Part shown: piece after piece, positions 35,026 to 64,000 of the stretch
How the letters are laid out: every line of letters begins with the position of its first letter
Numbering within the stretch: position 1 is the first letter of the stretch
Source: Vairimorpha necatrix
Taxonomy: Eukaryota
NCBI GenBank assembly: GCA_036630325.1
Contig: CP142726.1
Span: 1,178,001 to 1,242,000 of the forward strand
Direction: 5' to 3'
DNA: 64,000 nt
Notes under the pieces: model-generated
Told to the model about the DNA's origin: nothing
What the model saw: the letters and a program-made list of their open reading frames with translations, nothing else
Databases searched by the model: none
Translations under genes and position numbers: made by a program

Positions 35026-38000
35026 TGTATAGATTCTCCATAATGGGGTTCAAAAATATAAGAATATAAAACATCCCCCCTCCAAGACGGTTAGTCTCCT
35101 ACGTCATCATCAACCCTAAGCAGATCTTTTAAGTCATAGTACCTCTTCTTAACTAATCGCTTATTCATTAATTTTAATACATAAGAATCCCCTGGACACA
35201 CAATCCTAATCGTCCCAATATCCAAAAACCTACCTTTTTCATACTTATTAGACCCCTTTAAATTTTCACTCTTCGTAACTCGCACTCTCTGTCCTTCGAC
35301 GAACTTGTCTATATATCTCTTTTTAAATCGACTACTATAATCTCCTTCTGGTCCATTTCTTAGCATTACATTGCCCGTATTATCTTTAACTGCCTCAAAT
35401 GGTGTGCATCTTAGACCTTCATGGTAACTATTATTATAAATCTCAAAGGCCTTCATAACTCTTTCTTCAAAGCTATTTTTGGGATTCATTTTTAAAACAG
35501 ATTCTTACAACGTACCAATAACTCTTTCAACTCTCCCATTGCTTTTATGTGATTCAATACTGGTCTTTCTGTGAGTTATATCCAACTTTCTGCATAACTC
35601 TCGAAATTCCTCATTTGCAAATTCTCTTCCATTGTACGATATGATTTCTTTTGGTCTTTTACCATTTCTACACAAATTTTCTATAAATCCAGTTATCGAG
35701 CTAGCACGCTTATCTTTCAACACGCAACCCCATGCGACTCTCGTATAGTAATCAATGACCACTAAAACGAATTTCTTCAAATCTCTATAATCGATTAAAT
35801 CTATTGCCACCTTTTCTAGGTATCTACTTGTCGCAATAAAATCGCATCCTCCTGATTTTTTCCTATTGTATTTTTGGCATTTTTCACATTTTTTTTATCA
35901 TCATCTTTATATCTTATTTAATTCCTGGCCAATAATAGTCAAACTTCATAGCACAATAGACACTTCCTAGTCCTCTGTGGGCCTGTTCTTCGTGGTACCT
36001 CTTCATTAACTCTAACCTATCACCTATTGCAGGTATTTCCGCTCTACGGCCAAAATCAAAATTCTAGTACTCCTTGTCCCCGACTTTCTCAACATGCTTT
36101 AACCATTTTCCCGCTATCTGTTTTTCTGTTCTTTGTCTAATCACTTCTCTCTTCGGTTCATTTACCTCATGAATCCTGCTCAATGCATCAGCAACAACCA
36201 TCTGATCGGGTTGCCTGTACTCGATTTCAAAATCAAACTCTTGGATCATCTCTATCCACCTGTTAATCCTACTATTATTATTAAAACATGGCTTTCTTCT
36301 TATTTCTGCTAAAGCCTTATGATCAGTTTCAACCTTAAACTTTCTTCCTCCCAATTCATACTCAAACTTCTTTATGCCCCAATATACGGCATTCATCTCT
36401 TTCTCGCTAATTCCGTATCTAGTTTCATTCTGAGTAATTTTTTTTGATGCCCATTGTACCGGCACCCATTTCTCTTTTTCATTTTTCTGCATAAGTACAG
36501 CTCCCATACCAATATTACTCGCATCCGTTCTTAATAAAAATTCTTTCTCGTAATTAACAATCCTCAATTTCCCTAAATTCTTAAGCACTTTTTTCATATT
36601 CTCAAATTCAATATCCAACTCCTCAGTCCAATTCCAACTTTTGTTTTTCCCTCTTAAGCAATCTGTCATGTGTATCGTTTTCTCTGCGTAGTTCTTTATA
36701 AATCCTCTGAACCACCCAATTAATCAAAAAATCTTTTGACGTCGGTTACATTATGCGGCTTCGGAAATTCTAATGCTTCATTCTTTTTTATCTCTGATGG
36801 CATCATATCCTGCCCATTCAATATTACTCCTAATAATTTAACCTCAGATTGACGATACTGTATCTTCTTTGAGTTTAATCTCATGTTATTCTCTTCTAAC
36901 AGTCTAATTGCCTCTAAAAACAATTTGTCGTGTTCTTCTCTAGTCTTGGCATATATCACAATATCATCCATTAAACTTCTATTCCTCTTCCCAAATACTT
37001 CTCAAAAATCTTATTCATAATCCTTTGCATGATCTGTGGCGAATTTTTAAACCCCATGACAATGCTGTTCCACTCGTATACTTTCTTATCAAACTCAAAC
37101 GCGGTCTTATGCTTATCCGCTTCTTCTATCTCAACCCCCAAAAAGGCTTCTTTAAGGTCAATAACACTCATAATCTTAGAGCCTTGCGTAAACCTAATAA
37201 TATCCCTGATGTTACACAACTCATATGGATCCTTCTCTACTAAATCGTTCAGGGCCATAAGATTACTGACCAAACGTATGCTCCCATCCGGCTTAACTAT
37301 AGCCTTTATCGGATTCCGCCATTCAGAGGTTGATCATTTAATTACATTTCTTTTCTCTAAATCCTCTAAGTGCTTCATTAATTCGTTTTTATGCGCTTGA
37401 GGAATCATCTGTCCCTTCCTAACGACTTTTTCCCCTGCTTCTGTCTTGATTTTATATTTCTATTTTACAATACTTAATTTTCCCCTTATTTTCGTCAATC
37501 ACGTTTTTAAATTTTTTCTTAACATCTTCTAAAGTCAGCCCCTTGAATGTTGTCGTCTCATAACCTCTCTTCTTAATGTCTTTAACAATTCCAGTTCGTT
37601 TCCATGGTGAACCTGGCCTAACTTCTATCTGTTTCTTTTGCCTTTTACCAGCCCACGTATTCCTGTAATATCTTCCATCGCTGCCGTTGTTGTTCTCTTG
37701 ATATATCTTCTCACATTCTTGTTTATTTCTCTCCTCTCTGTATCTATTATAACATATATTACTTTTATGTCCTAATCTTTCACAATAAAAACATCACATA
37801 TACCTCACATACCGTCTCCTACGCTCTATCTCCTCTGTATATATTTCTTTCGTCAACTTCTTTGTGACCACTTCAATCATTCTAAATCTCTCTTCTCCGT
37901 CTTCATAATCTTTTACAATCTCTTTTAGTCGTATTCCTATCATGTCATGATGATCCTCTAAACTTATATTCATAACCATAAAAATTTTCAGCTCCAAACT

Positions 38001-38199
38001 TCCCTTTTCAAAAATAATTTTCTTCAAATCTTCATTGCTTCTACACTCAATAACTTTGATCTCATACATAATAATCTTATATTCTTGCAATGTTTTCTGG
38101 CCTCTTGACCACAGCCAACACTTGTTAACACACGATTTGGTATCGCCCCCATGTATTTATTCTCCATAATGGGGTTCAAAAATATAAGAATATATAACA
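35026..38199 (-). mobile_element. Degenerate Ty3/gypsy retrotransposon with 48-bp LTRs
   Basis: LTRs at 35026-35073 and 38152-38199 (TG...CA, 3 mismatches), PBS TGGGGGC and PPT GGAGGGGGGA. Frameshifted fragments of gag, RT (IDLKEAF, GFKNSP, MDDI), RNase H (LRTDAS) and integrase (VVIDYYTR, SNGRVER). No TSD. Confidence 0.92.
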
Positions 38200-39559
38200 T
38201 AAAATAATAACTATCACAACGAAAATGTATTATTTCGGCCAAGAACACATTAAGAGCAAGATAACATGTATTTATAAGGAGTAAATGGTAAACATGCAAA
38301 CACGGGGTTTCTTTTTTTTAAAATTCTATGTTTTCCAATACACATAAAAATCATCACAATATGAGACGGAATAGTGTGTATAAGTTAATAACGCGAATTT
38401 ATAAAAAAATAGAAAATATGTTAGTTCTACAATTGGCAAGCTAGATAAATAAGAATTTAATGAAAATTTTATAAACTGGATTAATATTATAGTTAAAATA
38501 GATGAATAAAAAAAGAGAAAATACGTATCACAGGAAAAGATTTTAAGGGGGTTTGATGTTTTGTAATGATGCAAAGAATTATTACTAATAATACATTATA
38601 GTTTCAGTAAATAAAATAAAACGCAGCACTCCAATGGTCAATTATATTAAATTCGTTTTGTGATTCTATAATTAATTTTTATAAAAGGCGTGCTTTTTTT
38701 AAAAAAAAAATTATTATTAAGAACATAAGATTGATAATTACAGATTGCGTCAGAGAATTATTGTATGGGATTGTACTAATACTATAAAAGAATTGGGGAC
38801 TATAAAAACCATCTCTACAAATGAAAATTACGAATTTTTCCACAAAGTTAAAATATTTGACTTAATATATCATACGAAGAAAAGAAAAATGTAAATTTAT
38901 ATAAAACTTTTTGGCGAATATGTTTTTAATATTTCTTTATGTTATAAAATATCATATATCTGTCTTCATTTTCTTTTTTAATAATTTTTTTCACACTTTG
39001 AAAATCCAAAATTTTTTTTCAAAAAGATTTTCACATAAAGTTGAATTCATGGAAAATAGGTGGCTTTAACACCAAATTAATTGTTGTATTCTATTAAAAA
39101 AATAACTATAAGTAATTTTAAAAAGACATAATAAACGAGTAAACTAAAAATAGTGAAAACATATAAATACACAGTTAAGTATGATTTTCATTAAAGATGT
39201 CTAAAACAAGATATAATAGTGCTATTTATTTTGCTAAATGTACGCGCCCTTAGGAATGTACAAAGAGGAATCATTTAGTTAAATATCAGAGAAATAATGT
39301 TTATGTAACAATTTAAAAAATCTAAAAAATACAATATTTAGTTTGTAATATGTCATGGTAATCACAAAAATTATTTGTATACTTTTGCCATAATTTTGAA
39401 GATATAAGGCGAAAATCAAAAAAAGAATCGTTTTTTATTTTTTTAAATGTACTATATAAGACTAAACAACTGTGTAATTTTTTAGTAAAACACGAATATA
39501 ACATTAAAGTCAGCTTAAGTTACCAAATTCCGATATAGCTTTTTTTTTGTTTTTTATAA

Positions 39560-40450
39560 AAATGGAGGAAAGTAAATGATGAGGAAGAAACAAAAACTAA
39601 AGTAGAATAAATAATTTAAAAATCTACAAACACTGAAGTGTTGTTTTTTTTTGAACCATATTTCTAATTAAATTTTGAGCTTTTGACGGATCTGTTTCTA
39701 TTTTCTACAATATTATTTAAAGAGATCGCCATTTACCTTAATGGAATTGGTATGAGCTATTACATCTAAATCTCTGCAATATATAAAATGATTTACTATA
39801 TGATGTTGGTTAAATATAGTATTTAAAGAATGATAGGCTTCTGTATATCACTCTATATTGTGATGCTTAAACTTAATTATTTAAAAGAAGCACAGTAAGT
39901 CTGTTTTTATCTCTTTTCTAATATATTTGTACAATTCTACATTAAATGATACGTTTTTCATTCATAAACACTAAAAATTTCTATTATTTTATCCTTAGTT
40001 TATTCTTTCCGATCTTAGTATCATCAATTTCTACAATTATATTCTCGCCACCTGGATTTTCTATACTAGAAAAATAATAATTATAAAAGTATTTTTTTAA
40101 CACTTTTAAATGCTGCAGCATTTGATTTTTTGAATCGCAAAAAATTTGAGAAAATACTTACGAAGATAGCCAAGAATCTGCATTTTAGTACTTGTAATGT
40201 TGTAATGTAATATAGCCTATAATCTTGTAACTAAATTTGATCTTATATAGAATTTGTAATTTAACATATACTTCATGAATACCTTATAATACTTCTGTTT
40301 TTTCCTCTTTGTTTCATTTTAGAATTAAATACTCCAATTTTCATTATTTAATCATTATATAAGATCGCTATTTCTTCTCTTGTTCGCATTATTTTCTCCA
40401 GTTTTTAAAAAAGAGGCAAACACTTCCCCCATATCAACATCCTAACTAAA
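39560..40450 (-). mobile_element. Decayed Merlin/ISXO2-like transposase (same family as 5070-6240)
   Basis: GGENIIVEIDDTKIGK motif. It shares aaatgatgaggaag(g/a)aacaaaaa and atatgatgttgg with the 5.1-5.9 kb relic. Confidence 0.75.
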
Positions 40451-41857
40451 GCCGACTTTGGCCAATAAATGTTCTATTTTCGATAAATAATGCGTCGTTT
40501 CGATTTATTATGTGTTTTAAATTTTATTTTTAGAATTGATTATCTGAATTTACTTGATTTTTCTGCATATTATTGAAAAATAACAAATGCGTTATCCACT
40601 CATTCAAGAAAAATCAAAAAAAAATCTTTCTAGAAAAAAAATTATTACTATAACGAAAACAGATATTTTTGTAAAATTTTTGTCAAGAAAGCATCCCGAT
40701 TACCGTTATATCTCGAAAAATTACATAAAAATTATCATCTAGTGCTATTGAAGCATTTCACTTTAGCTTATTACCAAAAGAAAAGCAGAAGTTTTAATTT
40801 TAAACTTTATTTGGCAATTTAAAGCAGAAAAAAGTGGAATAACAAAAAACTAAAAAAAAATTTAAGGTATAATAAAGTAGCATAATATTTGAAAACAAAA
40901 ATTCTTATTTTTATGTTTTTTAAACTCATAAATATTTTCCTATTTACTAAGAATTATCTTTACTATGCATTGGATTCTTAAAAAAGATAATACTTGATCA
41001 ATCTTATTAAAATAAATAGAGAGCACTGGCAAGATGCATAAACAACATAAACTCTTAGATTAATCACTTTTCCGCTCTAAAAATGAAGTGCAAAAAGGAG
41101 CAAGAAGGAAACAAAACTTGTTAAGTACTTATGGTTGAAAAAAGTAAATAAATCTGTTGTGTTTAAAATTAATTAAAAGGCAGAAGATCTGATTAACATT
41201 TTATTACTTGTAAAGGAGTTTATAAAATTAAGCTGGGATACGAAACACCTCTCCATAGATGGTATTTACAATAAATTTACCAAAAAAGGAGCGCAAAAAA
41301 GGAGAAGCAAACAGTAGCACTTAAAATAAACTATCTTCAAACATTAAAGATATCAATTCAAATTTATATATATATATATATGTCTATAATATTTAATAAT
41401 AAAATATGCTATTAAACTTTTTGATCTAATTAATGCTAATTATTTTATAAGCATTTTTTTTCATTAAAAAATTTGCTAGATTGTAGAATATGCGTTAAAT
41501 TATTCTTGTCTGTCTGGTATTCCTTTTTTTAAAAGTTGGTCTAGTATATAAGAAGATTTATGAAGAAACCCTTTATATATACTAAATCAGCAAAAAAAAG
41601 AATATTGAAAGGTTAAAAGGTCGTAAAACTTTAAATAATTGCAATGCAATGATAAAATATTTGTTTTCTTAGTATAAATATATTCCTTTGTTATTTTTAA
41701 TGTCACAAGTACTTAGAAAGTTTAATTTCCCACTTGCTCCTCCGTTTTTTTAACTTCATTTTTGGATAAAAAATAAAGAGAAACATCCTCTAAAAAGGGC
41801 TGATTGCCATTTTGCCCCTTTTTAGTATATAAAAAAAAATTTTATTTAACCCCCATT

Positions 41858-43504
41858 ATGTTCATCATGCATTTCTTTTCAATGATTGTTTTTACACAAG
41901 CAGAACTTAGCCCGTTATACGAAGCTATAAAGAACTGGTGGAACGAAAAAATTAAAGGTGGGGATTATTGGCCACTTGATACTACGAAAATATATTATCA
42001 AGCATACATAAAACCAAGATTCCAAAATTCCGACGGATTTTATAGTTGGAATTCGCGCTTATATTTTGAAGAGCGCAATCATAAACGTGAAGAGGATTTG
42101 TTAACAAATATTAAATGTGAAAAAAGTCTCCCATTAAAGATTCTTGTTGATGAATATGAGAAAGAGCTGGCGAAAATTTGGAAGAAGAAAAAAATAGATA
42201 ATTTTTTTCTAGTATACAACGTTGAAGATTTAAACAAGTTCATAGATTCTAGTGAATCAATAACATTTAAAGAAGTTATAGAAGAAATTCGAAAAAGAAA
42301 TAACGAAAGAAAAGAAACAAAAACCAAAGATCAATTTTATTTTAAAGAAATTTATGAAGGAGATAAGTATAAGGAAAAGCATTTTTTTGACATGATTAGA
42401 TGTGAACCATATTTTAAGTTTAATTATTGGGCGTCCCCGTCTAGTACAAACACGCAGCCCAATTATTGTTCAAAAACAGAAATCCTTGACGGCATTTTAT
42501 TTAGGATAAAAATAAACGAAACTCACTATTGTTTTGAACTTTCTAAGAAAGAAATAATTAACATTGTAAAAGAGTGTCTAAATGAGAAAGAAGTTATATA
42601 TCAGATGTGTTTTGATTTATACGAAGATACTTTATATATTAAAGATTCTGATAAAATTTTGGATTTATTTGCAGAGTATAAATCGTATGGTTTAAAAAGT
42701 ATACCTCGATACACGAAAAACTGCGAATTAAATAATTTAGTAAAAGATAAACAAGATATACTTCAATGGTATAAGAAAAATAATATCTCAAATTACACAG
42801 ATCAGAATTTGGATTTTGAAAGTATGAAATATTTGGAAAAAATCAAAGATCTAGCAGAAAGTTTAAATCTTAAAAGAATTGAGGCATTTGATATATTATT
42901 GAAAAGTGAAGAAATTGGGATTCTCATAGAAAAAGTTCTTCTAAGATCGGGAGCTCGCTTGGATGCATTATTTGGATATTTATTAGTAGTCGAGAAAATA
43001 ATTAGCAGAGATGATTTAAATAACTACATAAATAATATCTTAGATTATAAAAATAGCATTATACTCAAGTTATCTGACAGAATGAATAGAAAATTTAGTT
43101 TAATTGTGATTTATCTATTTGTCGAAGCAGAAAGATATATTAATGAACAAGAGGTAGTCGGGAAAACTTTTCAAATTTTGAAAGAAATTGGAAATATTAT
43201 GGAAAATGGTCTGATTAAAAGCGGAAAAGGACCAAATCAAACGATCCAATATTTAAATCTGGTTGATATTATGAATAAAGTTTTCGCAAAACAAAGTGAA
43301 AATATTGAAGTTTATGGAATATATAATATATACAATATTATTTCACTATTAGCAGATTCTAATTCTCGACTTGATAGATTTTATTTAACAAGATACAAGG
43401 AAAAAGTGGATAAAAATGGTATTATTAAAAACCTTAAGCTTGACGAAAATAAAGTAAAAGAAGATAACAAGAAAATGATGGACAAACTAAAGGGATCTAT
43501 CTAA
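41858..43504 (+). CDS. Secreted multigene-family protein, copy A (548 aa)
   Basis: ATG follows CCCCCATT. The N-terminus is signal-peptide-like (MFIMHFFSMIVFTQA). Two paralogs lie in the window. Confidence 0.9.
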   Translation: MFIMHFFSMIVFTQAELSPLYEAIKNWWNEKIKGGDYWPLDTTKIYYQAYIKPRFQNSDGFYSWNSRLYFEERNHKREEDLLTNIKCEKSLPLKILVDEYEKELAKIWKKKKIDNFFLVYNVEDLNKFIDSSESITFKEVIEEIRKRNNERKETKTKDQFYFKEIYEGDKYKEKHFFDMIRCEPYFKFNYWASPSSTNTQPNYCSKTEILDGILFRIKINETHYCFELSKKEIINIVKECLNEKEVIYQMCFDLYEDTLYIKDSDKILDLFAEYKSYGLKSIPRYTKNCELNNLVKDKQDILQWYKKNNISNYTDQNLDFESMKYLEKIKDLAESLNLKRIEAFDILLKSEEIGILIEKVLLRSGARLDALFGYLLVVEKIISRDDLNNYINNILDYKNSIILKLSDRMNRKFSLIVIYLFVEAERYINEQEVVGKTFQILKEIGNIMENGLIKSGKGPNQTIQYLNLVDIMNKVFAKQSENIEVYGIYNIYNIISLLADSNSRLDRFYLTRYKEKVDKNGIIKNLKLDENKVKEDNKKMMDKLKGSI

Positions 43505-44366
43505 GAAAAAAAAATAAAGGTCTTTTTTAAACATTTAATTTAACATTTATTGCGGTTAGATCTATGTATTTTTAATGTTTATTTTTCCTTCTGATTATCA
43601 AGTTTTATAAATTGTTTGTACATTTTAAAAAAATATTTTAAATTATACTACATCTCTGCAGTCAAATAGCATATAAATTTCAGGTTAAAAAACGAATGAA
43701 TTGTGTTGCAGGATCGCAATTTATCGGATTTATCTTAAGAGCATAGTATTAAATCTGTTTATATGAGTGCAGCTTTCTCTGACATCTCTAGCATGTTATT
43801 ATATGCAATTCAAATAGCCTCCCAAGACATAATAGAGACTAAATAATAATTCTATAATTATAACTCAATCAAGTTAAAAATTTGTGTTTTGCACCAACCA
43901 CGACATTGCGCATATTTATTGTTCTATTTTACAACCGTTTTCCATGTCGTGACGCATAAGCAAAACATACCTTCAATAATGCAATAGATCTGCAAGTTGT
44001 TCTTAAAATTTCCAAATCCATCATGTTAAGCCTTTAAAAATTTTTTAGGCTTTGTTGTGCGTTATTATTCTTTTTATATCAGAATTTTCGTTCTATTGTT
44101 TGTACAAACGAATTTTTTGTCATTGTAGGTCCCAACTGTGTTTTTTGCCTATACTGTCATACACGCACTATAGTTTTATCGGACAATATTATTGTTATTG
44201 TATAATAAAATTTGAACCCCCAGCCCTTGGCGCTTCTTTGGTATTTGCTGAATCCAAGACAACTCCCTTGTAATAGAAAAAATAGAAGAAATAGGAAAAA
44301 ATAGTAGAAATATAATTTAGTTAAATAAATTTGATAATAAATCAATATCACAACCAAGAAACTCAT

Positions 44367-44640
44367 TTAATCGTCACCTTTACAATAACTTTTACGTGAC
44401 ATAAATTCAATAAGCCAAGTATCTTTTTTTATACGCTTAATTATGTTCTTTGGCATTGCAGATTTTACTTGCACTAAATGCTCTATATTGTTGGTATAGA
44501 TTCCAACTAGAGATCTAAACTCGATAGAGAGGTTTACAGCCCTATGCACGAGGCAAAAATTTCGAATCACACCTAGATAACTTGGATGACCATCAATATG
44601 TAAAATTGAACCTATTCCTATTTTACACTTATAAGTCTCT
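44367..44640 (-). mobile_element. Merlin/ISXO2-like transposase C-terminal fragment
   Basis: IGSILHIDGHPSYLGVIRNFCLVHRAVNLSIEFRSLVGIYTNNIEHL resembles GSIIHTDG..SY...H..VNHS..F....G.HTN.IE.LW. Confidence 0.8.
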
Positions 44641-45634
44641 GTCGAACACTCGGCGGTCTTACTCTCCGCTCTTTTAATTTTAAAGTTTTTTTTTTTTTTT
44701 TTTTGGGGGGGGGGGGAGAATATCAGCTTTTATATTGCCTAATATCCAAACTATGTCAGAAATTTAATCGTCTGAACTTGTTAAATATCTTATTTTACAT
44801 TTTCTACAATTAATTTACTCATCAAGTAGGACAATTTTAGCAGTCCACCAATAATTAGACTAAAGACATGCATTTCTAAAAAAAATTTTTAATAAGTTTT
44901 TTTTTCATAAACACCTTCGATAATGATACTTCCAATTATACTTCTAATGAAAAATAGCTACTTCTACATAGAATTAGATATATACATTCGCAGTAATCAT
45001 TCGAGGGCAACTTGCTTACTTTATTTACTAATAATTTTGCACTTTGCGAATGGTCGTATGCCTGTATACTGCGCTTCTAATCTCTTCTCATTGAATATTA
45101 CTCATTTCACAACTTCACTGCATTTAAAACATATTTTCTGTTCAATCAACACGTATAACTCAATCAATGATTCTAAACAATTGTCAATACTGTAAAAAGG
45201 CCTCTGTACTGGCTTGATTTTTTCGTGCTTTTCTTCGGTATTTGATTAAAAATTCAATATTCAAATTTTTTTATTAAGGATTCGGAATTTTTTAATAAAA
45301 ATTCCGATCAAAGATCAAAAAGCGCCCTTTTTAATCTATTTTTTAAGGTATTTATTAAAAAACCTTTTATATACTAGACCAAGAAAAAAAAATACTGAAA
45401 AGTTAAAAGGATCGTATATATTTAAATAATTGCAATACATACTTTAATATCTGTTTTCTTTACTAATATACATTTGTTTTTTTAACTTCAAAAGTGCTTA
45501 AAATTTTTTGTCTCCTTTTGCTACTTTTTTACAATATTTTTTATAGAATTATAAAAAAAAGTAACACGCTTTGAAAGGGAGCTTTGGGCATTCTGCTCTT
45601 TTTTTTAATATAAATAATGTTTTTTGACCCCATT

Positions 45635-47284
45635 ATGTTTATCATGCATTTCTTTTCAATGATTGTTTTTACACAAGCAAATCATAAATTGTTTTACGAA
45701 ACCATAAAGAACTGGTGGAACGAAAAAATTAAAGGAGGGGATTATTGGCCACTTGATACTACGAAAATATATTATCAAGCATACATAAAACCAAGATTCC
45801 AAAATTCCGACGGATTTCATACTCGGACTTCGCGCCAATCTTTTGTATGGAGCATATACGAACATGAAAACTATTTGTATACAAATATTAAATATGAAAA
45901 AAGTTCTGCATTAAAGATTCTTGTTGATGAATATGAGAAAGAGCTGGCGAAAATTTGGAAGGAGAAAAAAATAGATAATTTTTTTCTAGTGTACAACGTT
46001 GAAGATTTAAACAAGTACATAGATTCTAGTGAATCAATAACTTTTAAAGAAGTTATAGAAGAAATTAGAAAAAGAAATAACGAAAGAAAAGAAACAAAGA
46101 ACAAAGATCAATTTCATTTTAAAGAAATTTATGAAGAAGATAAGTATAAGGAAAAGCATTTTTTTGAGATTATTAGGAACGAGTCAGAAATGAACATTGG
46201 TAGCGAAAAATACAGAAATAGTTCATACACGAACCTCACTTATTACTCTAAAAAAGCTGTAAAATATGACGGCATTTCATTCAGTAGGTTTTTAAACAAT
46301 ATTCACTATTGCTTTTATATATCCAATAAAGAAATACTAGACATAGTAAAACGGCGTTTAAAAGAAAAAGAGGCCATTTACCGGATGTGTTTTGATTTAT
46401 ATGAAGATATTTTTTTTGTAAGAGATTCAAGCATAATTGCTGATTTTTTTACAAGTAAAAAGGGGGATATTTCATGTGTTACACGCCCTTGCATGAAAGA
46501 CTGCGAATCAACTGAATTAGTAAAAGATAAACAAAGTATACTGCAATGGTATATTAAAAATGATATTAAAATTCCTACAGATCAGGAATTTTATCTTGAA
46601 AGTATGGAATATCTTGAAAGAATCCACGGTCTAATAAAAAATACAAACTACAAAGTGATCGATGCATTCAATATATTATTGAAAAGTAAAGAAATTGAGA
46701 TTCTCATAGAAAATATTTTTATGAGATCAGGAGATCGGCCGGATGCATTATTTGGATATTTTTTAGTCAAAGACAACATAATTACCAAATATGATTTAAA
46801 TGACCTATTAAAGAAAAAAGTTTTTCATAAAAATCGCATTACACCAAAGATATCTAACAATATGAGGACAAAATGTAATTTAATTAAGATATTTCTATTT
46901 TTTGAAGCGGAAAGATATATAAATGAACAAGAGGTCGTCGGGAAATCTTTTGGAATTTTGAAAGAAATTGGAAATACTATGGAAAATGATTTGGTTGAAA
47001 GCGGAAAAGGGCCAAATCAAACCGCCCATTTGAATTTAATCGATATAATGAATACAGTAATTGCAAAACAAAGTGAAAATATTGAAGTTTATGGAACATA
47101 TAATATATACAATATTATTTCACTATTGGCAGAATCAGAATTTCAGGAAAAAAATAATTATAAAACAGAATACATGAAAGATGCAAATAAAAATGATATT
47201 ATTAAAAATTATAACATTGACGAAACTAAAATAAAAGAAGACAACAAAAAAATCAGGGTTCAACTTGCGAGAACTAGCCAATAA
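45635..47284 (+). CDS. Secreted multigene-family protein, diverged copy B (549 aa)
   Basis: Same signal peptide and CCCCATT-ATG context as copy A, with blocks identical to it. Confidence 0.9.
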   Translation: MFIMHFFSMIVFTQANHKLFYETIKNWWNEKIKGGDYWPLDTTKIYYQAYIKPRFQNSDGFHTRTSRQSFVWSIYEHENYLYTNIKYEKSSALKILVDEYEKELAKIWKEKKIDNFFLVYNVEDLNKYIDSSESITFKEVIEEIRKRNNERKETKNKDQFHFKEIYEEDKYKEKHFFEIIRNESEMNIGSEKYRNSSYTNLTYYSKKAVKYDGISFSRFLNNIHYCFYISNKEILDIVKRRLKEKEAIYRMCFDLYEDIFFVRDSSIIADFFTSKKGDISCVTRPCMKDCESTELVKDKQSILQWYIKNDIKIPTDQEFYLESMEYLERIHGLIKNTNYKVIDAFNILLKSKEIEILIENIFMRSGDRPDALFGYFLVKDNIITKYDLNDLLKKKVFHKNRITPKISNNMRTKCNLIKIFLFFEAERYINEQEVVGKSFGILKEIGNTMENDLVESGKGPNQTAHLNLIDIMNTVIAKQSENIEVYGTYNIYNIISLLAESEFQEKNNYKTEYMKDANKNDIIKNYNIDETKIKEDNKKIRVQLARTSQ

Positions 47285-49009
47285 AGAAAAAAATAAATAA
47301 ATGTCTGTTTTGTATATACTATATTTATTCTGATTTGCTCTAAAATCTTTTGATATTTTTAATTTTTTATGTATAAACTTCTCTAATTACATAAGATTTA
47401 TGGAATTGTCTTTTTTTACACGTCAAAAATACAAAATTTTATAATGTACATTCTCTTCCGTCAAATAGCACAATAAAGGTTAATTTAAAAAAGCGAATGA
47501 AGTATGTTGCACTATCGTAATTTATCGGACTACCCGTAACGCTCTATAAATCTGTTTGTTTGGGAGCTCCTTCATCTGGCAATTTCTAGCATATTATTAT
47601 ATGCACTAACAGTAGTGACTCTCAAAAACTCGATGAAGATTAAATAGTAATTCTATATTTTTATATAACTCAATTAGGTATAGACATTTGTGTTTTTCAC
47701 CAAACCTATGACATTGGTATAATTATTTTTCTATTTTACAACTGAATTCCGTGTCGTGACGTGTGAAACAATTTAAAAAGCAAAAATACAATATATCTTC
47801 ATAATTTGATATCAATTTTCCGTATCTGCTGTTGTATAGCTCTTAAAATTTTTGTATGCTTTCTTGCGCGTTATTTCTTTTTTTTAGTATTTCATTCTAT
47901 TAGTTGTACAAATATTTTTTATCTAAAAGAATCTTATGACTGTGTTTTTAAAGTGTATACTGTTATTTATACTATACTTTTGTTGAGCAATATTACGTTT
48001 AATTCTTAAAATAAAATTTGGAGAAAAAAATCGGTTGAAAACTACTTAGATGGCCAAAAATTCAATGAAAAATTTGTTTTAGAAAAATGTCTTTTTCAAA
48101 AAAGATGTTATTGGAAGGAAAGATATAAAAATTTATTAATATTAAAAAAATAACTATCACAACGAAAATGTTTTTGATGTGGCTTAAACAAGCTCAGTCA
48201 GAATAACATGTATTTATTGAGAGGTAAATAGAAAAAAATGCAAACAGCTTCTCTCTCTATTTAAGAAAATAATATGTTTTACAATACACCTAAAAATAAT
48301 CACAATATGAGACAAAATAGCTTTGATAATTTATAGCGGAAATTTATATGCAAGTTGAAAATATACTAGTTTTACATTTGGCAAGCTAGATAAATAAAAT
48401 TAAATGAAATATTTTGAAAAATTTAAAAATAGAGCAAATTTGTAGAGTAGAAAGCTAAATCAAAAGGGGGAAATAAGTATCACAGGAAAAGCTTCAAGGG
48501 AGGTTTAGTCTTTTGTAATGGTATAGGACAATAACCTCTAAATGTTCAATTGGCAGAAGAGAAAAAATCGCAGTACTCCATTGCGCAATTATATTTATCA
48601 GAATTCTAGTGATTCTATAATTTTTTTGTGAAAGGCGTGCTTTTTTCTTGTAAAATATTATTATAAAGAGCACAATGATGTAAACTACGCTCTTTCAGTT
48701 GTAGAAAATAAAACAGCTGTATATGCTAATTCTAAGAAAAACAAATAACGTCTATGAAACTACTATGATAAATGAAGATGAAAACTTCTTGCATATTTTT
48801 CTATATTTGACTTTATTTTTTTCATAAGTAGAATCTAAAAAAAATAAATATATATATTTCTTTTGAAAGCCCAACTATGTCAGCCAGACATGGGCTTGAT
48901 ACAGATCAGGAAGGGGTCTTCGAGAGCCCAATGAGTGAATCTCGGAAGGAAGTCCTGGAACCGCCAGATGAGACTGCAAGCGGATCTTGTGAAAAATAAT
49001 TAATAAGCC

Positions 49010-52000
49010 TGTCAATAGATTTATTGTTGTCCTTCATCAAAATTAGGGGTTTATAAAATTTAAAAATAAATATCAACATCCCCCTTCTTAAAACATATCG
49101 TCAACTATTAATTTCAGCTGTGCAGCATGCCTTTTAAATCTTCTACAACCAACATCAATTAGGTAAGTGTTATTATCAAGGGAGTCAACTACCATTCCTC
49201 TGTTTAAGTATTTTGGAGCACCTTTTTTAATTATGCCTTCGTTCCTTATCATCACAACATCCCCCTTTTCGAATTTGTATTCCGCTGGTTTCCTTTCATG
49301 CTTTGTTTTGAATTTTAATATTTGACGTAGTTGTGTTTGTTTCAATTTCTCAGCATTTTCTTCATTACATGCTTCTGTTGGAGTCATTATAATTCCAGTG
49401 TGAAATGTGGTGTTGTATACGTGTAAGGCATGTATTAATCTTCGTGTCAGTAGTTTACCGGTAATATTCTTATAAATAAGGTCCTGTAAAGTCCTGTTAA
49501 AACGCTCTACCCTTCCATTTGATTGATGATGGAATGGTGAGGTATAATGCAGACTAATATTTTTGTCGGCACATAAATTTTTAACTGCATTTCCCAAATT
49601 TTCTTTAGATTGATCTAGAATTAATGTTTTTATCTTTAACTTTTCATTGATCTCTTTAATAAATTCTGCGACTTTTGAGGTTTCACGCGATTTAATTATC
49701 TTAGCAAATCCGTATCTTGTAAAATAATCAATTCCGGTGATAATGTATTGGTTATTAATAGGGCCAATAATATCAATGGCAACCTTCTCCCCCTTCTCGT
49801 ATGCTGTTACATATAAGAATCTTCTGTCCTTTTTTGGATTATATTTTGCACAAATAGTGCATCTTTTAATAACCTTTCTTATCACTTCTTCCACGTTTTT
49901 TACCTTAAATCCCCTTTTCTCGATTTCATACTTCATAGATTGTATCCCTCTATGCAAGAGCTCTTTATGAATTTGCTCTATCTGTTCTTCAAGGCAAACT
50001 GTTCTTTCAACTTCATTTATCGTAGGCCGTGAATCTAATTGTGGGAGAGGGCTAATTTCTGCTGAACAATTGGTAGGGTTTCGGCTCAGACAGTCTACGT
50101 GTGGTATCTCCTTTCCTTTTTTATACTTTATTTTAAAACTAAAATTAGCAATTCTCTCCAACCATCTTTGTATTCTTAACGACTTTATTTCTCCTTTATT
50201 TAGTGCCTCTAGGGCTTTATGGTCCGTTATGACTTCAAAATCAGTACCATACAAAAAATACTTAAAATGTTCCATGCCCCATAGTATTGCTAGGCATTCC
50301 TTTTCACTTATGCTGTATTTTATTTCCGTTTCCTGCAGTCTTCTGGATGCAAAAGCTACGGCTTTATCTTCACCTTCGAACTCTTGGGATAATATCGCAG
50401 CTATCCCACTGTTTGACGCATCTGTCTCTAATTTAAAGTGCTTATTAAAATCTGGTTGTGTCAATTCTGTGCTATGTTTAAGTGAATTTATGAGGGCTAG
50501 GAATGCATTGTTTTCTGCTTCTCTCCAGTAAAACGTCTTATCACCCTTTAACAAATCATAAAGGGGCCCGCCTATTAATGCACAATTGGGGATAAATTTT
50601 CTATAGTAATTTATCAGCCCTAGGAATTCCTGTACTTTCTTCTTATCTTTCGGAGGCTCTAGATCTTCGAGCGCCTGTGTTCGTTTCACACAAGGTAGTA
50701 CTTTATTATAGGTTATTTTGTGGCCCAAAAATTTCACTTCCTCTTTTTTGACTATTGATTTGTCCATATTTATATTCATATTATATTGTTTAAGTATATC
50801 TGTAACTCTCTTATATGCCTCGTCATGTTCTATCTCATTCCTACCAAAAACTAGAATGTCGTCCACATAGCAATAACATGACTTACCGAGCTCACTATTC
50901 AGAACATGATCCATATATCGTTGAAAAATAGCTGGGCTATTTTTAAATCCTTGTGGCATTACTGTCCACTCATATAGCACATGCTTGTATCGGAATGCTG
51001 TTTTGTGTCTATCTCTAACACTTAATGGTATCTGAAAAAATCCGTCTTTCAGGTCGATCGTGGAAAAAAACTTCATACCTCTTAAATTGCATAATATTTC
51101 GTCGATATTTGGTAACGAATAACGATCCAGTTCGACGAGATTGTTCAATGCCACCAAATTAGTCGTTATTCTAACCTTTCCATCCGGCTTTATTACTGGT
51201 CGAAGATTATTTAGCCAGGAGGAATTCGACTTACGAATGTATCCTTTCTCAATGAGTGTCTTTATAGATTTATCCGCTTCAACTTCTAGCTTTTTTGGTA
51301 AAGGGTATACCTTTTCCACAACCTTACATCCTTCTTTTGTTTTTATTTCACAAATATATTTAAATTTATCTTTGTTCATCACCTTCTTTATCGTGTTTAC
51401 TCCTATCAGAATTTTCTCAGATTTAACCTTTGGGAGGACATAGAAATCGGCCGTACAATTACTGTTTTTATATTTAAATTCTAGTGAAACATATTGTTTA
51501 ATACTAAATTGTTCTTCCAAACAGGTCCAGAATTTTATTTCCTCATTCAGTTCTTTAGGTATGAGTGATAGTCTTTGTATCACTGAGTAACTCATAAAAT
51601 TATATCTTGCACCAGTGTCAAATAAAACTGCAACTTTTACGTCTTTAACATAGATAAAACTCTCTTTATTTAAAATTTCTGCAATATCTTCGCTTATCTC
51701 ATTAATTCTCCTAGATCTATCGGTCTCTTTTCCGTTATTTCTATTTTCTGGGTACTTTCGACATGACCTAGCGAGATGACCCCGTCGTCCGCATTTATAA
51801 CATCCTGTAGACCTAGAATTTTCGTTAATTTTTAAAGCATTTAATCTTTCTAAAAGAGAATTTATGTTGTTCTTCTTGTCTACTTTTTTCTCTTTTTTCT
51901 TTTCTTCTTCCATGCTATGAATTCTCTGGAGTTCTCGAGCTCCTATTGATTTAACTGACCATAGATATTTTTTTATATCGCTATTACCTGCATTCAGTCC

Positions 52001-52455
52001 TTCTGCGATGATGTCTACAATATCTAAATCGCTCAACTTATAGATACTAGCCTTTTCTTTTACCCTTTCTATAAAGGCTATAATGCCTTCGTTCTCATCC
52101 TGGTTTAATCGGTATATCTCACCCAGGGAAATCTCTTTCTTACCAAATACTTCTTTGGCGGACTCTAACCATTTTTCATACATTAGAGCGCACTTTCTTC
52201 GCGACTCTAGAAACTCCTCATGCCATTCTATAATGGCGTAATCTGCTCTTCCTATGATGTATTCAATTTTATCTTCGTCATTCTTGTTGATGAAGAAAGA
52301 CATCATTCCAAGTCTCTTACATTCTTGAAGAAGGTTACGTTTTGTTATAACCATGTTTATGGGCTTTGATGTCCCATTCTCCACCATGTCAATAGATTTA
52401 TTGTTGTCCTTCATCAAAATTAGGGGTTTATAAAATTTAAAAATAAATATCAACA
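49010..52455 (-). mobile_element. Intact Ty3/gypsy retrotransposon, 3446 bp, identical 69-bp LTRs
   Basis: LTRs at 49010-49078 and 52387-52455 (TGTTGA...TTGACA), TSD AAGCC, PBS TGGTGGAGAATGGG and PPT AAGAAGGGGGA. Confidence 0.97.
49088..52414 (-). CDS. Gag-Pol polyprotein, 1108 aa, single uninterrupted ORF
   Basis: CCHC knuckle CYKCGRRGHLARSC, protease FDTGA, RT IDLKDGF/YVDD, RNase H ETDAS, and integrase HHCC plus DDE (IDYFTR, SNGRVER). The first ATG is inside the LTR after CCCCTAATTTTG. Confidence 0.95.
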   Translation of the reverse strand: MKDNNKSIDMVENGTSKPINMVITKRNLLQECKRLGMMSFFINKNDEDKIEYIIGRADYAIIEWHEEFLESRRKCALMYEKWLESAKEVFGKKEISLGEIYRLNQDENEGIIAFIERVKEKASIYKLSDLDIVDIIAEGLNAGNSDIKKYLWSVKSIGARELQRIHSMEEEKKKEKKVDKKNNINSLLERLNALKINENSRSTGCYKCGRRGHLARSCRKYPENRNNGKETDRSRRINEISEDIAEILNKESFIYVKDVKVAVLFDTGARYNFMSYSVIQRLSLIPKELNEEIKFWTCLEEQFSIKQYVSLEFKYKNSNCTADFYVLPKVKSEKILIGVNTIKKVMNKDKFKYICEIKTKEGCKVVEKVYPLPKKLEVEADKSIKTLIEKGYIRKSNSSWLNNLRPVIKPDGKVRITTNLVALNNLVELDRYSLPNIDEILCNLRGMKFFSTIDLKDGFFQIPLSVRDRHKTAFRYKHVLYEWTVMPQGFKNSPAIFQRYMDHVLNSELGKSCYCYVDDILVFGRNEIEHDEAYKRVTDILKQYNMNINMDKSIVKKEEVKFLGHKITYNKVLPCVKRTQALEDLEPPKDKKKVQEFLGLINYYRKFIPNCALIGGPLYDLLKGDKTFYWREAENNAFLALINSLKHSTELTQPDFNKHFKLETDASNSGIAAILSQEFEGEDKAVAFASRRLQETEIKYSISEKECLAILWGMEHFKYFLYGTDFEVITDHKALEALNKGEIKSLRIQRWLERIANFSFKIKYKKGKEIPHVDCLSRNPTNCSAEISPLPQLDSRPTINEVERTVCLEEQIEQIHKELLHRGIQSMKYEIEKRGFKVKNVEEVIRKVIKRCTICAKYNPKKDRRFLYVTAYEKGEKVAIDIIGPINNQYIITGIDYFTRYGFAKIIKSRETSKVAEFIKEINEKLKIKTLILDQSKENLGNAVKNLCADKNISLHYTSPFHHQSNGRVERFNRTLQDLIYKNITGKLLTRRLIHALHVYNTTFHTGIIMTPTEACNEENAEKLKQTQLRQILKFKTKHERKPAEYKFEKGDVVMIRNEGIIKKGAPKYLNRGMVVDSLDNNTYLIDVGCRRFKRHAAQLKLIVDDMF

Positions 52456-53020
52456 AAGCCGAATATTATACCCAAATAAATTATATATATTTCTTTTTGG
52501 CGGAAATGTTTTATGTATTCCTACATGTACTACATTTTTTTAATTATTATTCACACTTTAAAAACCAAGAAAGGTATTTTTTAATTTTTTTTTTTTTCAA
52601 CTGGAATTTATCCAAAATATGTAGTTTTAGCACTACTTAATTGAAGTATAAAAAACTATATACAAACTTAAAAAAAATTTAAGCGAGTAAACCTAATAGT
52701 GATTTTAATGTATACACTCACAATTTAGTATGATATTCATGTGAATAATATAAAAAATAATTATAATAATGCTATTTAAGATCGCGAGCCCAGGTGGTTA
52801 CTTGGGCCGGAATAATTACAACAAAAAAAGAAGTTTCTTTCTAAAATCATGCTCAAAAGAAGGTATGAAATACAATTATGAGCTGTTCCACATGTTTATC
52901 ACATAAACTTATACAAATATCACTAAATTTTTTAATTAAATAAAAAACAAAAAAATATTTATATCATTTAAATAAATACATTTTTCATAAATATTTATTT
53001 TACTGTTATTTTCAATTTTT

Positions 53021-56000
53021 TGTTGGATGGTTATAAATAGCAATATTATTAAAATACCCCTTATGTCTACTATTCCCAACATGGCACCCGATACGGAAAA
53101 CTCGTATAGAAGGATGGAAGCACCCAAATTCAGTTTAAAAAGTGCACTTGTAGATTGCATGAAGTTTGAGATATATTTTAAAGACAAAAATATAATTGTA
53201 GATGAGGAAAAAATAAACACCGTCCTATTATTTTCAGACGATGAAGCCGTTTATTTCTTGTACACAAACAAAGAAAATTTTACAAAAATTTCATGGCGAA
53301 CATTTAAGGGAAGAATAAAAAAATACATGGAAAGGAATGCTTTAGAGAAAATTTTAAAATCAAAACAAAAATATAATGAAGCAACAGCAACTTGGATAAA
53401 AAGAGTTCTTCCCCTGGCAAGTGCAGCCAACTTGCCTCAAGAATTTACTAAAATGCTTATTAAGAATACATGTGTTAACTTAGATTCAATGTTGATTATC
53501 CAAGAATGTTTGATGGAACGTAATATTTACAAAGAGAAAGAAATGATACTAAAAGATATAGATGAAGTGGAATATATTAAGAAAACTGTAAAAAAGATAA
53601 GAGCTAATAGAGAGACAGTAATGAGAAGAAAAAGCGTTTCAGAGCTAAGACATAAAGAACCCATTAAACAAACTGACAAAACTGAAATGAAAAAATTTAA
53701 TCAATTAGTAAAAGAGCCTATTGATTATAACAAAAGTGATAATGTAACTGAGATAAAACTAAACAGTGTAAATATCTCCGCTTTTATGGATGAAGGATCA
53801 GATGTGAACATCATCAATGAAAAGAAGGTAGAAGAAAGAGGACTTATTGCATTACCCTGTGAACATACAACAATAAAAAACGTGTTTGGGGTAGTAACAG
53901 AACTGACTAAAAAGGTAGAGGTAACATTAAAAATCAATGATATTATACTTACTCAGGAATGTTATGTAGGAGCTTTTAAGAATTCCAATGAAGATATAGT
54001 TATCGGCAGGCCAACTTTAAATAAAGTAAAAAAACTTTAAAATGAACTTTCAGAGCTTGTAAGAAAATTTCCAAGGGGTTTTGATGGAAAGACAAGTAAA
54101 GGATACACGGATATAATGTGTGAGATAAACACACCGATAGGTAAGAAAGTGAATATAAAATACATAAATATACCACAGGCCCTAATGAAAGGAGCACAAG
54201 AAACAATTAACAAATTATTAGAACAAGGATATATAGAATATTCGACATCAGCTTGGTGTAATCCCATAAGACCAGTATTGAAACCAGATGGCACTGTTAG
54301 AATTACAAACAATATGCAATTTCTGAATAACCTAGTTGAAGATAACAACTATACAATACCTGTAATTCAAAACATAGTAGATGCCACGCGAGGCAAGAGA
54401 TTTTTTACATTTATAGATTTGACAGATGCCTACTATCAAATACACCTAAAACCTGAACATAAATTTAAAACCGCATTTTATTTTAAAAATAAACTACACC
54501 AATACACACAGATGCCACAAGGCTTTAAGAATTCACCTGGCATGTTTCAAATGATAATTGATAGTTTACTAGAAAACCTCCTTGAAACTGCTTGTTGCGT
54601 CTATTTAGACGACATAATAATTTTTGGAACAACAGAAGAAGAACATGACAATAACCTTGCTAATGTTTTGACAATACTTGAAAAAAACAACTTCGAGGTC
54701 AACCCAACTAAATTATAATTTAAACAAGAAACTATTAAATTATTAGGAATGATGATCGATGGAAAGAAACAATATCCAATAGAACAACATCAAAAAGGTA
54801 TGAGATTTTAAAGTACCAACCACAGTTAATGAGGTACAACGATTTTTAGGATTAGCCAATTATTACAGAAGGTTTATCTCAAACCTAGCTACAATATCTG
54901 CTCCGCTTTATGAATTACTTAAAAAGAAGAATGAGTTTATATGGAAGGAGGAGCAACAAAAAGCATTTGATATTATTAAAGAAAGAATCAACAGTAAGAT
55001 TGCTAGACATATTCCCGACTACGACAAACTCTTTATACTATCCACCGACGCATCAAATACAGGAATTGGTGCATGCCTACAACAAGAGCACAAAAACGAA
55101 ATTGCAGTAGTAGATTGGGCATCAAAGAAACTGACAGATGCTGAGAAAAAATATGGAATTACAGAAAAGGAATTTCTGGCGATGGCTTGGAGTATTACAC
55201 ACTTTGATTATTATCTACGAGGAAGAAAGTTTAAAGTAATAACAGATCATTCTGCAATTTTATCTATGAAAGATAAACACATTTTTGGAAACCTACGACT
55301 AGAACGAATGAGATAAAAATTACAGGATTACGATTTCGAAATTGAATATCGAAAAGGCAAAGAACTAATAGACGCCGATGCAATTAGCAGGATTTATGAG
55401 GATCCAAAAGGAGTTGAAGAACTTAGAACTAAAAATAAAAACGTATTAATCGCTTCGGATGGGAAGTGGTACTATAAAGTAAATGAAAATGAAATTAGAT
55501 ATTTCCCCGAAGTTCTTGAAAGAAAAGACATTTTATATAAAGCACACGAAGTACACACCGCGCATGGTGGAATAAGTGCCATGACTTACGAATTAAAAAA
55601 GAACTATTATTGGCCAAAAATGACAGAATCAATAACAAACCATATCAAAAATTGCGAATCGTGTGTCCGAAATGATCAAAAAAGTTTAGGAGGTGAAGAA
55701 TTTGTAGAAACACAAAGACCGTTAGAAATATTTGGAATGGACCTAATGTTTATTGACCAGAAGACAACACTAATGACTTGTATAGATTACTATACACGTA
55801 GATGCAAGATAAAATCAATAAAATCAAAGCAAGCTAGCGTCTGTGCGAATGCAATGACCGAGATATTTGATGAAATTGGAGTTCCTGAGAAAGTTATCAC
55901 AGACAATGGAAAAGAATTCACAGCTACAACTGTAAAAGAAATAATGTCCAATATGTTAGTAAACCATCATAAAATATCCATAGATAAGCACCAGTCGAAT

Positions 56001-56555
56001 GGTAGGATAGAAAGATTACATAGGAAAATTTGGCAAGCATTAAAAAAAAATAGAATGTAATCAAAAGGAAACATTAGAAGAAATGTTATATGATGTAGAA
56101 AATAAAATTAATAATACATTTAATAGAGCAATAGGTTGTACCCCGAACGAAGCATGGGATGATCCTGATAATAAAACATTGAAAGAATTGAATAAAAAAG
56201 ATTCAAAATACGGAAAAGAATTTAAAAAACTTCCACGTGAAAAATTTAGAATTGAAGAACAAGTGTTTATTCAACAAAATCCAATGCAGGCACAGGACAA
56301 GCTCAACGATAAATACATTGAAGAGGGAATGATACATACTGTGTTAGAAAATGACTCTTACTTAGTAAAAGTAAACGATAAACTGATCAAAAAGAGCCAC
56401 TCTCAGCTCAAATCAGTACCAACTATATGATTGCTTGTTATAAAAGCCAAGTTATAAAAAAGTTAGCAGACCGTAAACGTATTTTTGGGCGGGATGTTGG
56501 ATGGCTATAAATAGCAATATTATTAAAATACCCCTTATGTCTACTATTCTCAACA
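53021..56555 (+). mobile_element. Degenerate Ty3/gypsy retrotransposon with 61-bp LTRs
   Basis: LTRs at 53021-53081 and 56495-56555 (2 mismatches), ATG at 53063 after CCCCTT, PBS TGGCACCCGA and PPT GGGCGGGA. The gag-pro, RT (YLDD), RNase H and integrase regions carry stops and frameshifts. No TSD. Confidence 0.93.
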
Positions 56556-56671
56556 CTTACAATTATCTTTAACAAATATAATCCAAAAAAGAATAAAAAA
56601 TTTGTTTTTGTGACGGCCCAAGAAGTAGGGGGAAAAGTAGCCATAGATATAATCGGCCCAGTAGAAAATCG
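56556..56671 (+). mobile_element. Older gypsy integrase fragment related to the intact element
   Basis: KYNPKKNKKFVFVTAQEVGGKVAIDIIGPVEN versus KYNPKKDRRFLYVTAYEKGEKVAIDIIGPINN. Confidence 0.85.
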
Positions 56672-63469: not shown

Positions 63470-64000
63470 GAAAAAAAAATAAAGGTCTTTTTTAAACATT
63501 TAATTTAACATTTATTGCGGTTAGATCTATGTATTTTTAATGTTTATTTTTCCTTCTGATTATCAAGTTTTATAAATTGTTTGTACATTTTAAAAAAATA
63601 TTTTAAATTATACTACATCTCTGCAGTCAAATAGCATATAAATTTCAGGTTAAAAAACGAATGAATTGTGTTGCAGGATCGCAATTTATCGGATTTATCT
63701 TAAGAGCATAGTATTAAATCTGTTTATATGAGTGCAGCTTTCTCTGACATCTCTAGCATGTTATTATATGCAATTCAAATAGCCTCCCAAGACATAATAG
63801 AGACTAAATAATAATTCTATAATTATAACTCAATCAAGTTAAAAATTTGTGTTTTGCACCAACCCCTGGCATTGCGCATATTTATTGTTCTATTTTACAA
63901 CCGTTTTCCATGTCGTGACGCATAAGCAAAACATACCTTCAATAATGCAATAGATCTACAAGTTGTTTTTAAAATTTCCATATCCATCATGTTAAGCCTT

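Follow-up and report, generated by a model that had tools for sequence, protein, structure and literature searches.

Three Ty3/Gypsy Elements with Very Short Terminal Repeats

We found three Ty3/gypsy retrotransposons of the Metaviridae, here termed E1, E2 and E3, in a 64,000-nt stretch of the genome of the microsporidian Vairimorpha necatrix (assembly GCA_036630325.1, contig CP142726.1, positions 1,178,001–1,242,000 of the forward strand; henceforth the window, in whose own numbering all coordinates are given), which are bounded by long terminal repeats (LTRs) of 48, 69 and 61 bp, respectively, with an in-frame start codon inside each LTR. Three TG...CA repeat pairs of these lengths had been proposed in an initial annotation of the locus, and all were recovered at the same coordinates: a repeat search of 34000–57500 returned the pairs 35026–35074/38152–38200 (94%; 45/48 identical over the 48-bp repeat), 49010–49078/52387–52455 (100%; 69/69) and 53021–53081/56495–56555 (97%; 59/61). 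By exact count, all three LTR pairs have TGT as their first and ACA as their last bases. The 36–40 nt core of each LTR occurs exactly twice in the window when up to three mismatches are allowed, and 100 shuffles of this core search gave no match. The predicted bounds of the internal region were also borne out, with a TGG-starting site directly 3′ of each 5′ LTR and a purine tract directly before each 3′ LTR.

E2 (49010–52455, minus strand, 3446 bp) is an intact and young element, E1 and E3 being dead copies. Its 5′ LTR (52387–52455, minus strand) is followed by a putative primer-binding site at 52371–52386 (TGGTGGAGAATGGGAC), and a single gag-pol open reading frame (ORF) of 1108 aa (49088–52414) begins at an ATG inside that LTR. 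The polypurine tract (49079–49087; GAAGGGGGA) takes up all 9 nt from the stop codon to the 3′ LTR (49010–49078), so that 96.5% of the element is coding. E1 (35026–38199, minus strand) is a decayed element of 3174 bp, with the 5′ LTR at 38152–38199, a putative primer-binding site at 38139–38151 (TGGGGGCGATACC), a polypurine tract at 35074–35083 (GGAGGGGGGA) and a 3′ LTR at 35026–35073 in which the AATAAA of the 5′ copy is mutated. E3 (53021–56555, plus strand), also decayed and 3535 bp long, comprises a 5′ LTR at 53021–53081, a putative primer-binding site at 53082–53096 (TGGCACCCGATACGG), a purine tract at 56487–56494 (GGGCGGGA) that is weaker than those of E1 and E2, and a 3′ LTR at 56495–56555.

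The Pfam matches of the E2 polyprotein follow the order CCHC zinc knuckle, RVP_2 (251–333), RVT_1 (395–567), RT_RNaseH (655–758) and integrase (811–983), and its catalytic residues (YVDD, the integrase HHCC and D,D35E) stand in invariant columns of an alignment with 15 relatives. E1 and E3 retain reverse transcriptase (RT), RNase H and integrase (rve) domains in the same order as E2, in frames broken by stops and frame shifts; the frame of E1 is interrupted several times, and that of E3 contains one stop and frame shifts. The integrase is C-terminal in all three elements, unlike the Ty1/copia order in which it lies upstream of RT. E3 gives a weak protease match, and the ~245 residues before the RT of E1 have no Pfam match to a protease. 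Among the E1-type homologues P0092–P0136 no protease Pfam family is listed and only the distant P0147 has one, whereas the E2-type homologues do have one. These translations suggest that E1 may belong to a ~3.1-kb family without a recognizable protease. The pol regions of E1, E2 and E3 share 28–45% amino acid identity and a single nucleotide match of 142 nt, and the proposal that they represent three distinct families therefore holds.

Limits and Target Sites of the Elements

Comparisons with other contigs and with paralogous units of the window show the repeats to be, at the level of sequence, the complete and true ends of the elements, not remnants. The 5-bp target-site duplications that the initial annotation had wished to see confirmed are present in part: E2 has AAGCC on both flanks (49005–49009 and 52456–52460), and E1 and E3 have none at 4–6 bp. 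We compared the window with contigs of two public sequencing runs, X1 and X2, and found empty sites in three contigs of each, in which the left flank of E2 (19/20 letters matching 48985–49004) is joined straight to 52456 with a single AAGCC. The match of a further X2 contig, which is 91% identical to E2, begins precisely at 49010; beyond this point the contig differs in sequence, and it thus represents another E2 copy at another place. The flanks of E2 (48850–49009 and 52456–52520) consist of a GC-rich repeat, probably another short interspersed element (SINE)-like repeat besides the one described below, whose contig depth is well above that of the element in both runs. Since this flank is repeated and deep, the empty site may be a paralogous copy in place of an allele, and the limits of the insertion are fixed either way.

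In the case of E1, two paralogues of the sequence that begins at 38200 are present, one at 58168, which has two differences over its first 1614 nt, and one at 48143, which is 72% identical. Upstream of these paralogues the sequences are homologous to each other, not to E1, and the similarity starts within 2 nt of the terminal CA of E1, which fixes its 5′ end at 38199/38200. The other flank of E1 gives a borderline result against the paralogous units, with a score of 35 vs. a shuffle maximum of 34. On the left side of E3, the match of an X2 contig to the flank extends to 53021, after which the contig continues for 134 letters without alignment to the window. Directly after the 3′ LTR of E3, at 56574–56700, lies a gypsy integrase fragment (..GEKVAIDIIGP..) that is 76% identical to 49761–49846 of E2; E3 thus sits in or beside an older element, and this may explain why it has no target-site duplication.

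Anatomy of the LTRs and the Translated Primer Site

Read on the sense strand, the LTRs share one order of parts: a terminal TGTT..., a TATA-like box, CCCC, an in-frame ATG 2–8 nt later, five to nine codons and the terminal CA. In E1 these fall at positions 4 (TATATA), 26 (CCCC) and 33 (first in-frame ATG) of the LTR, with an AATAAA at 39 in the 5′ copy; in E2 at 24 (TATAAA), 30 and 42, with AATAAA at 54; and in E3 at 12 (TATAAATAG, containing TATAAA), 37 and 43, with an ATTAAA at 28, upstream of the CCCC. The layout foreseen in the initial annotation, namely an AT tract, CCCC, ATG and the first gag codons, is therefore seen in the motif positions of all three elements, and AATAAA lies, as it had said, inside the 69-bp LTRs and the 5′ 48-bp LTR; the E3 LTR contains none. 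In E2, the LTR-internal ATG opens the intact ORF. The E3 LTR has an extra in-frame ATG at position 7 (window 53027), upstream of the TATA-like box, with the result that the ORF listing starts the E3 frame there; if the promoter is read correctly, this codon is unlikely to be in the transcript.

At the junction CA|TGG of each element, a second ATG is made up of the last base of the LTR (A; position 48 in E1, 69 in E2 and 61 in E3) and the first two of the primer site (TG), and it shares the frame of the first. The primer site is accordingly translated, as MGAIP in E1, MVEN in E2 and MAPD in E3, and its ~10 nt are part of the gag reading frame in all three elements.

Resemblance to Host Core Promoters

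To compare the LTRs with genes of the same window, we used the 14 ORFs of at least 150 aa that lie outside E1–E3 and include one near-identical duplicated pair. A CCC is present within 20 nt upstream of the ATG in seven of the 14, as against 6.1% of random 20-nt windows, and GGG in one. Many of these ORFs have TATAAA(T) 25–37 nt upstream and many have AATAAA at or shortly past the stop. The host genes, which include those for CNOT1, V-ATPase A, an ABC transporter and a RuvB-like protein, are compact and intron-free. Microsporidian genes have been described as having 5′ untranslated regions (UTRs) of <7 nt and a CCC-like motif directly before the start codon (Peyretaillade et al., PMC2803860), and the earlier remark that such a motif and tiny UTRs are typical of these hosts agrees with that paper and, as regards the motif, with our count. 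A host-type GGG motif ahead of the start codon of a transposable element (TE) has also been noted (Panek et al. 2014). As TATAAA(T), CCC and ATG stand upstream of the host genes in the order seen in the LTRs, the latter look like host core promoters, a likeness between sequences that we take as a resemblance, not as proof.

Relatives in Other Contigs and Protein Records

A scan of prokaryote-labelled genome contigs yielded two small contigs, L079 and L081, each containing a complete relative together with its flanks. The L079 element shares 41% protein identity with E2 and has 58-bp LTRs (TGTT..ACCC..AACA), the two copies of which are 100% identical, followed by the primer site TGGTGGAGAAC. 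In L079 (265–3552), the junction A|TG provides the first codon of the ORF (MVEN...), and the reading frame extends 18 nt into the 3′ LTR. Its LTR is not adjoined by a purine tract; a GACGGGGGAGAGAAA tract is seen 25 nt upstream of it, in the coding region. The L081 element shares 45% protein identity with E3; its 67-bp LTRs are identical to each other, contain TATAAATAG, ACCC, ATG, five codons and AACA, and are followed by the primer site TGGCACCCGACG; its protein starts with MTHINMAPD vs. MSTIPNMAPD in E3. Within the pairs E2/L079 and E3/L081, the primer sites agree in their first 10 nt and diverge in the next bases. By comparison, 16 distant gypsy loci of the same set (repeats of at least 120 bp that are not contig-end overlaps) have LTRs of 120–1147 bp. 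Repeats exactly at both contig ends (L004, L005, L009 and similar) were set aside as assembly overlaps. Two shorter pairs, in L044 (56 bp) and L082 (69 bp, without TG..CA ends), touch one contig end and were also left out.

We extended the comparison to full-length protein hits by means of the signature that translation of ..xACA|TGG.. produces, M-x(1-18)-[NDHY]-M-[AGVDE]. It is found in 12/23 E1-type and 8/18 E2/E3-type proteins (20/41 together) vs. 0/47 distant gypsy proteins. A direct M[AGV] start is seen in a further seven E1-type proteins and one E2/E3-type protein, against a baseline of nine of the 47 distant proteins. Seven E2/E3-type proteins are without the signature (P0016–P0021, P0024), and P0006 scored as having none only through a late gene-call start, since MVEN is read at the junction in L079, the contig that encodes it. 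Further, close homologues of 1000–1137 aa are found on contigs of only 3.0–3.9 kb, which indirectly indicates little room for long LTRs.

The closest named homologues come from Vairimorpha necatrix, V. apis, Nosema granulosis, Dictyocoela, Pseudoloma and Enteropsectra. Together with the E1-like V. necatrix protein P0091 described below, they mark the host as a microsporidian of the Nosema/Vairimorpha type, in accord with the compact, intron-free genes of the window and a GC content of 24–33%. For E2, the named matches of at least 33% identity are from V. necatrix, Nosema granulosis and Dictyocoela, the exception being P0006, assigned by NCBI to a Clostridium sp. metagenome-assembled genome (MAG); V. 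apis and Enteropsectra appear in addition in the E1-type search, and Pseudoloma stands lower in both lists. V. necatrix itself encodes P0091, which is 83% identical to E1 and has the same start, MENKYMGAIPNR, as well as P0003 and P0005, which are 48–51% identical to E2, all three being known here from their protein records; two more annotated V. necatrix polyproteins, P0101 and P0102, were likewise compared as protein records. A metagenome scan gave, among the matches listed, only distant gypsy elements of at most 41% identity; viral contigs gave a single, irrelevant match, and a search with the E3 gag among longer proteins gave none. Taken together, these records indicate that the build is common to relatives from other sources and is a family-wide architecture.

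These relatives bear on the possibility that the short repeats are what remains of longer LTRs, or else arise from chance or assembly, with the active copies having ordinary LTRs. The decay of E1 and E3 and their missing target-site duplications would fit such an origin. For E2 it is refuted by the identical LTRs, the target-site duplication, the intact ORF and the empty-site contigs; beyond E2, the 58- and 67-bp LTRs of L079 and L081, the short contigs of the close homologues and the absence of matches in the shuffles speak against it. We hence regard this origin as extremely improbable.

A Proposed Cycle on Very Short LTRs

We consider it probable that E1, E2 and E3 represent three separate microsporidian Ty3/gypsy families, the LTRs of which have been cut down to 48–69 bp, carry a host-type promoter and serve a tRNA-primed cycle. 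The LTR would act as a host-type core promoter from which RNA polymerase II starts in the few bases between CCCC and ATG; such a start, placed by analogy with microsporidian genes, would give a U3 of ~30–40 nt and leave the last 16–35 nt of the LTR for R and U5. The repeat available for first-strand transfer would then be 16 nt in E1, 28 nt in E2 and 19 nt in E3, plus a few bases. As the AATAAA of E2 lies 11 nt from the end of the LTR, cleavage is predicted to fall at or just past this end, leaving next to no U5. Replication would otherwise be of the standard tRNA-primed type, with first-strand transfer on a very short R. Among retroviruses, an R of just ~15 nt (mouse mammary tumor virus) is functional, and murine leukemia virus vectors still work, less efficiently, with ~12 nt. 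Translation of the primer site implies that the tRNA would anneal to the same bases over which ribosomes pass, as in the yeast element Ty1.

Several points weigh against this proposal. The points at which transcripts start and are polyadenylated, and with them the size of R, are all deduced from motif positions, and TATA-like words are common in a genome of ~28% GC. An AATAAA downstream of the presumed start is found only in E2 and in the 5′ LTR of E1; E3 and L081 have none, and the next AATAAA of E3 lies 37 nt past the LTR. Transcripts of the E3/L081 type would thus have to end in the flank or use the ATTAAA upstream of the CCCC, and in the latter case R would shrink to at most 10 nt, which strains the standard model. 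No target-site duplication is seen at E1, E3, L079 or L081 (4–6 bp having been checked for E1 and E3), which fits age, rearrangement or chimeric assembly. Lastly, the tRNA-Met of the window and the tRNA loci of the MAG that holds L079 include no matching primer tRNA.

The termination signals are also pertinent to an alternative in which the LTRs are real and contain no working promoter, the elements being copied from transcripts that start in flanking host DNA, with the whole 48–69-bp LTR serving as the strand-transfer repeat. Such read-through is frequent in microsporidia. The transcriptional overrun and weak poly(A) recognition reported for Encephalitozoon cuniculi (PMC2803860) would supply such transcripts, and E3-type LTRs without a downstream AATAAA would suit them. 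However, the positions of the TATA-like box, CCC and ATG are kept between E3 and L081, whose proteins are just 45% identical, and the LTR motifs match those upstream of host genes. Moreover, a strong-stop DNA that reached into an unrelated 5′ flank could not pair at the 3′ LTR. This makes read-through an unlikely substitute for a promoter within the LTR.

As to the primer, the only tRNA of the window, the tRNA-Met, matches just the first 6 nt of the E2 site. The tRNA loci of the MAG that contains L079 are bacterial-type clusters, and no tRNA 3′ end among them fits any of the primer sites; a single 8-nt match in L100 was rejected, being in AT-rich sequence and not at a tRNA end. In principle, then, priming might not involve a tRNA 3′ end at all, the TGG stretch being kept for self-priming, for an internal tRNA fragment or for its protein-coding role. 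Apart from the missing tRNA match, this would accord with the translation of the sites, by which part of their conservation could be at the protein level. On the other hand, the first 10 nt are identical in E2/L079 and in E3/L081 where later bases and codons differ, and every site has TGG directly after CA, as in tRNA-primed elements. As for self-priming, complementarity between LTR and primer site was seen by eye in E1 alone, over 6 nt. We deem priming by other means quite unlikely and retain a tRNA as the predicted primer.

On the same premises of a host-type promoter and a tRNA primer, we tentatively suggest, with less than even confidence, that the LTRs are near a functional minimum, consisting of the integrase end, a host core promoter, a start codon and the CA, with almost no U5 and an R of ~15–30 nt. 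The universal CA|TGG junction would serve as a start codon in a good context (A at −3, G at +4), and the same 10 bases would be both the tRNA primer site and Gag codons 1–4; annealing of the tRNA and initiation of translation might then be mutually exclusive on one RNA and act as a switch between mRNA and genome. If transcription does start inside the LTR, these elements would provide a natural system for testing how short an R still permits first-strand transfer, and an instance of a retroelement that uses the peculiar core promoter of its host.

Comparison with Described Elements

The initial annotation had named a prior report of this architecture in microsporidian gypsy elements among the things that would refute it, and in part such a report exists. 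For Anncaliia algerae, 97 gypsy consensuses have been reconstructed (Parisot et al. 2014; PMC4202319), and Supplementary Table S1 of that study gives LTRs of 50 bp for retro L, 45 bp for retro S, 73 bp for retro CK and 90 bp for BU. In the same table, the ORF of retro L extends over 32–3049 of a total of 3127 bp and that of CK begins at 45, both starts being inside the LTR; the remaining consensuses, which are the majority, have LTRs of 105–272 bp, and in most rows the ORF start is inside the LTR. Retro L, S and CK are 3127–3806 bp long and encode a single polyprotein, and L and CK share the LTR-internal ORF start with E1–E3. The start of retro L in File S1 (TGTTATATATT.., an AT tract, ACCC, ATG, five codons, AACA and TGGCG) has the layout of E1 and the same first 11 bases. 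The A. algerae sequences differ from ours in coming from another genus, in their primer site (TGGCGTCA..) and in being consensuses without flanks. The passages of the main text of PMC4202319 that deal with LTRs, short or compact elements, extremities and polyproteins note the single polyprotein and make no mention of LTR length, of an LTR start codon or of a translated primer site. With gag and pol in one ORF, E2 resembles the single-polyprotein gypsy groups of microsporidia set out there; its one ORF of 1108 aa and its nearest named relatives, which are microsporidian with the exception of P0006, place it in such a group. The architecture is real, family-wide and under-described in print, yet present in published supplementary data, and its value as a novelty is tempered by the LTR lengths and ORF positions already available in that supplement.

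The statement that gag usually starts downstream of the primer-binding site stands as a generality with one known exception, Ty1 of Saccharomyces cerevisiae (Ty1/copia, Pseudoviridae), in which a 10-nt primer-binding site lies within the GAG ORF and translation starts before it (PMC4974528). The likeness of Ty1 to E1–E3 is limited to this primer-binding site inside gag, as Ty1 has its integrase before RT and distinct U3, R and U5 regions. The Ty1 LTR, at ~334 bp, also contrasts with the 48–69 bp of the whole LTR in E1–E3. Ty3 of S. cerevisiae agrees with E1–E3 in its order of protease, RT, RNase H and integrase, in TG..CA ends and in a short primer-binding site; it differs in having two ORFs, a 5′ UTR and a primer-binding site outside gag.

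E1–E3 indicate how little end sequence an autonomous LTR retrotransposon needs. The mag element of Bombyx reportedly has a 77-bp LTR, for which our literature search gave no confirmation. The shortest LTRs stated in the paper texts that we found measure 76–90 bp and belong to Oryza brachyantha FRetro64 (Ty1/copia; 76/90 bp) and its non-autonomous partner FRetro129 (a small LTR retrotransposon, SMART; 85 bp; PMC3281118), and the literature found on the shortest LTRs concerns plants and vertebrates. As described there, both share TGT..ACA ends, a 5-bp target-site duplication and a TATA box in the LTR with E1–E3 and differ in being plant copia-type elements whose longer LTRs contain no start codon. 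In recent papers on microsporidian genomes, LTR elements are referred to without a statement of their LTR length in the passages concerned. Standard finders would under-count elements of this kind in microsporidia, where TE load is used to explain genome size. The LTRs of E1–E3 are all below the default minimum of 100 bp in LTRharvest and LTR_FINDER, which is a software convention and not a biological criterion.

The Surrounding Window

Beyond the three elements, a ~0.7-kb GC-rich and non-coding-looking stretch at 56700–57459 adjoins the tRNA-Met gene (57387–57459, minus strand; ARAGORN) and looks like a tRNA-headed SINE-like retroposon. Contig depth over 56729–57000 is very high in both X1 and X2, and a 52-nt piece of the stretch recurs at 22480–22531. 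A search of the whole window with Rfam returned nothing at the gathering score, including for this tRNA-Met.

The right-hand part of the window is made up of three tandem units of ~10 kb, at 38200–48142, 48143–58167 and 58168–64000. The first and third are nearly identical, a small indel following the 1614 nt compared above, and the middle one is ~72% identical to them. Each is associated with an ORF of 548–566 aa without a Pfam domain (41858–43504, 45617–47284 and 61823–63469). E1 is placed exactly at the start of the first unit, and an X2 contig links an E3-like 3′ end, at a distance of 8 letters, to 48126, close to the beginning of the second; the start of a tandem unit may hence be a preferred insertion spot for these elements.

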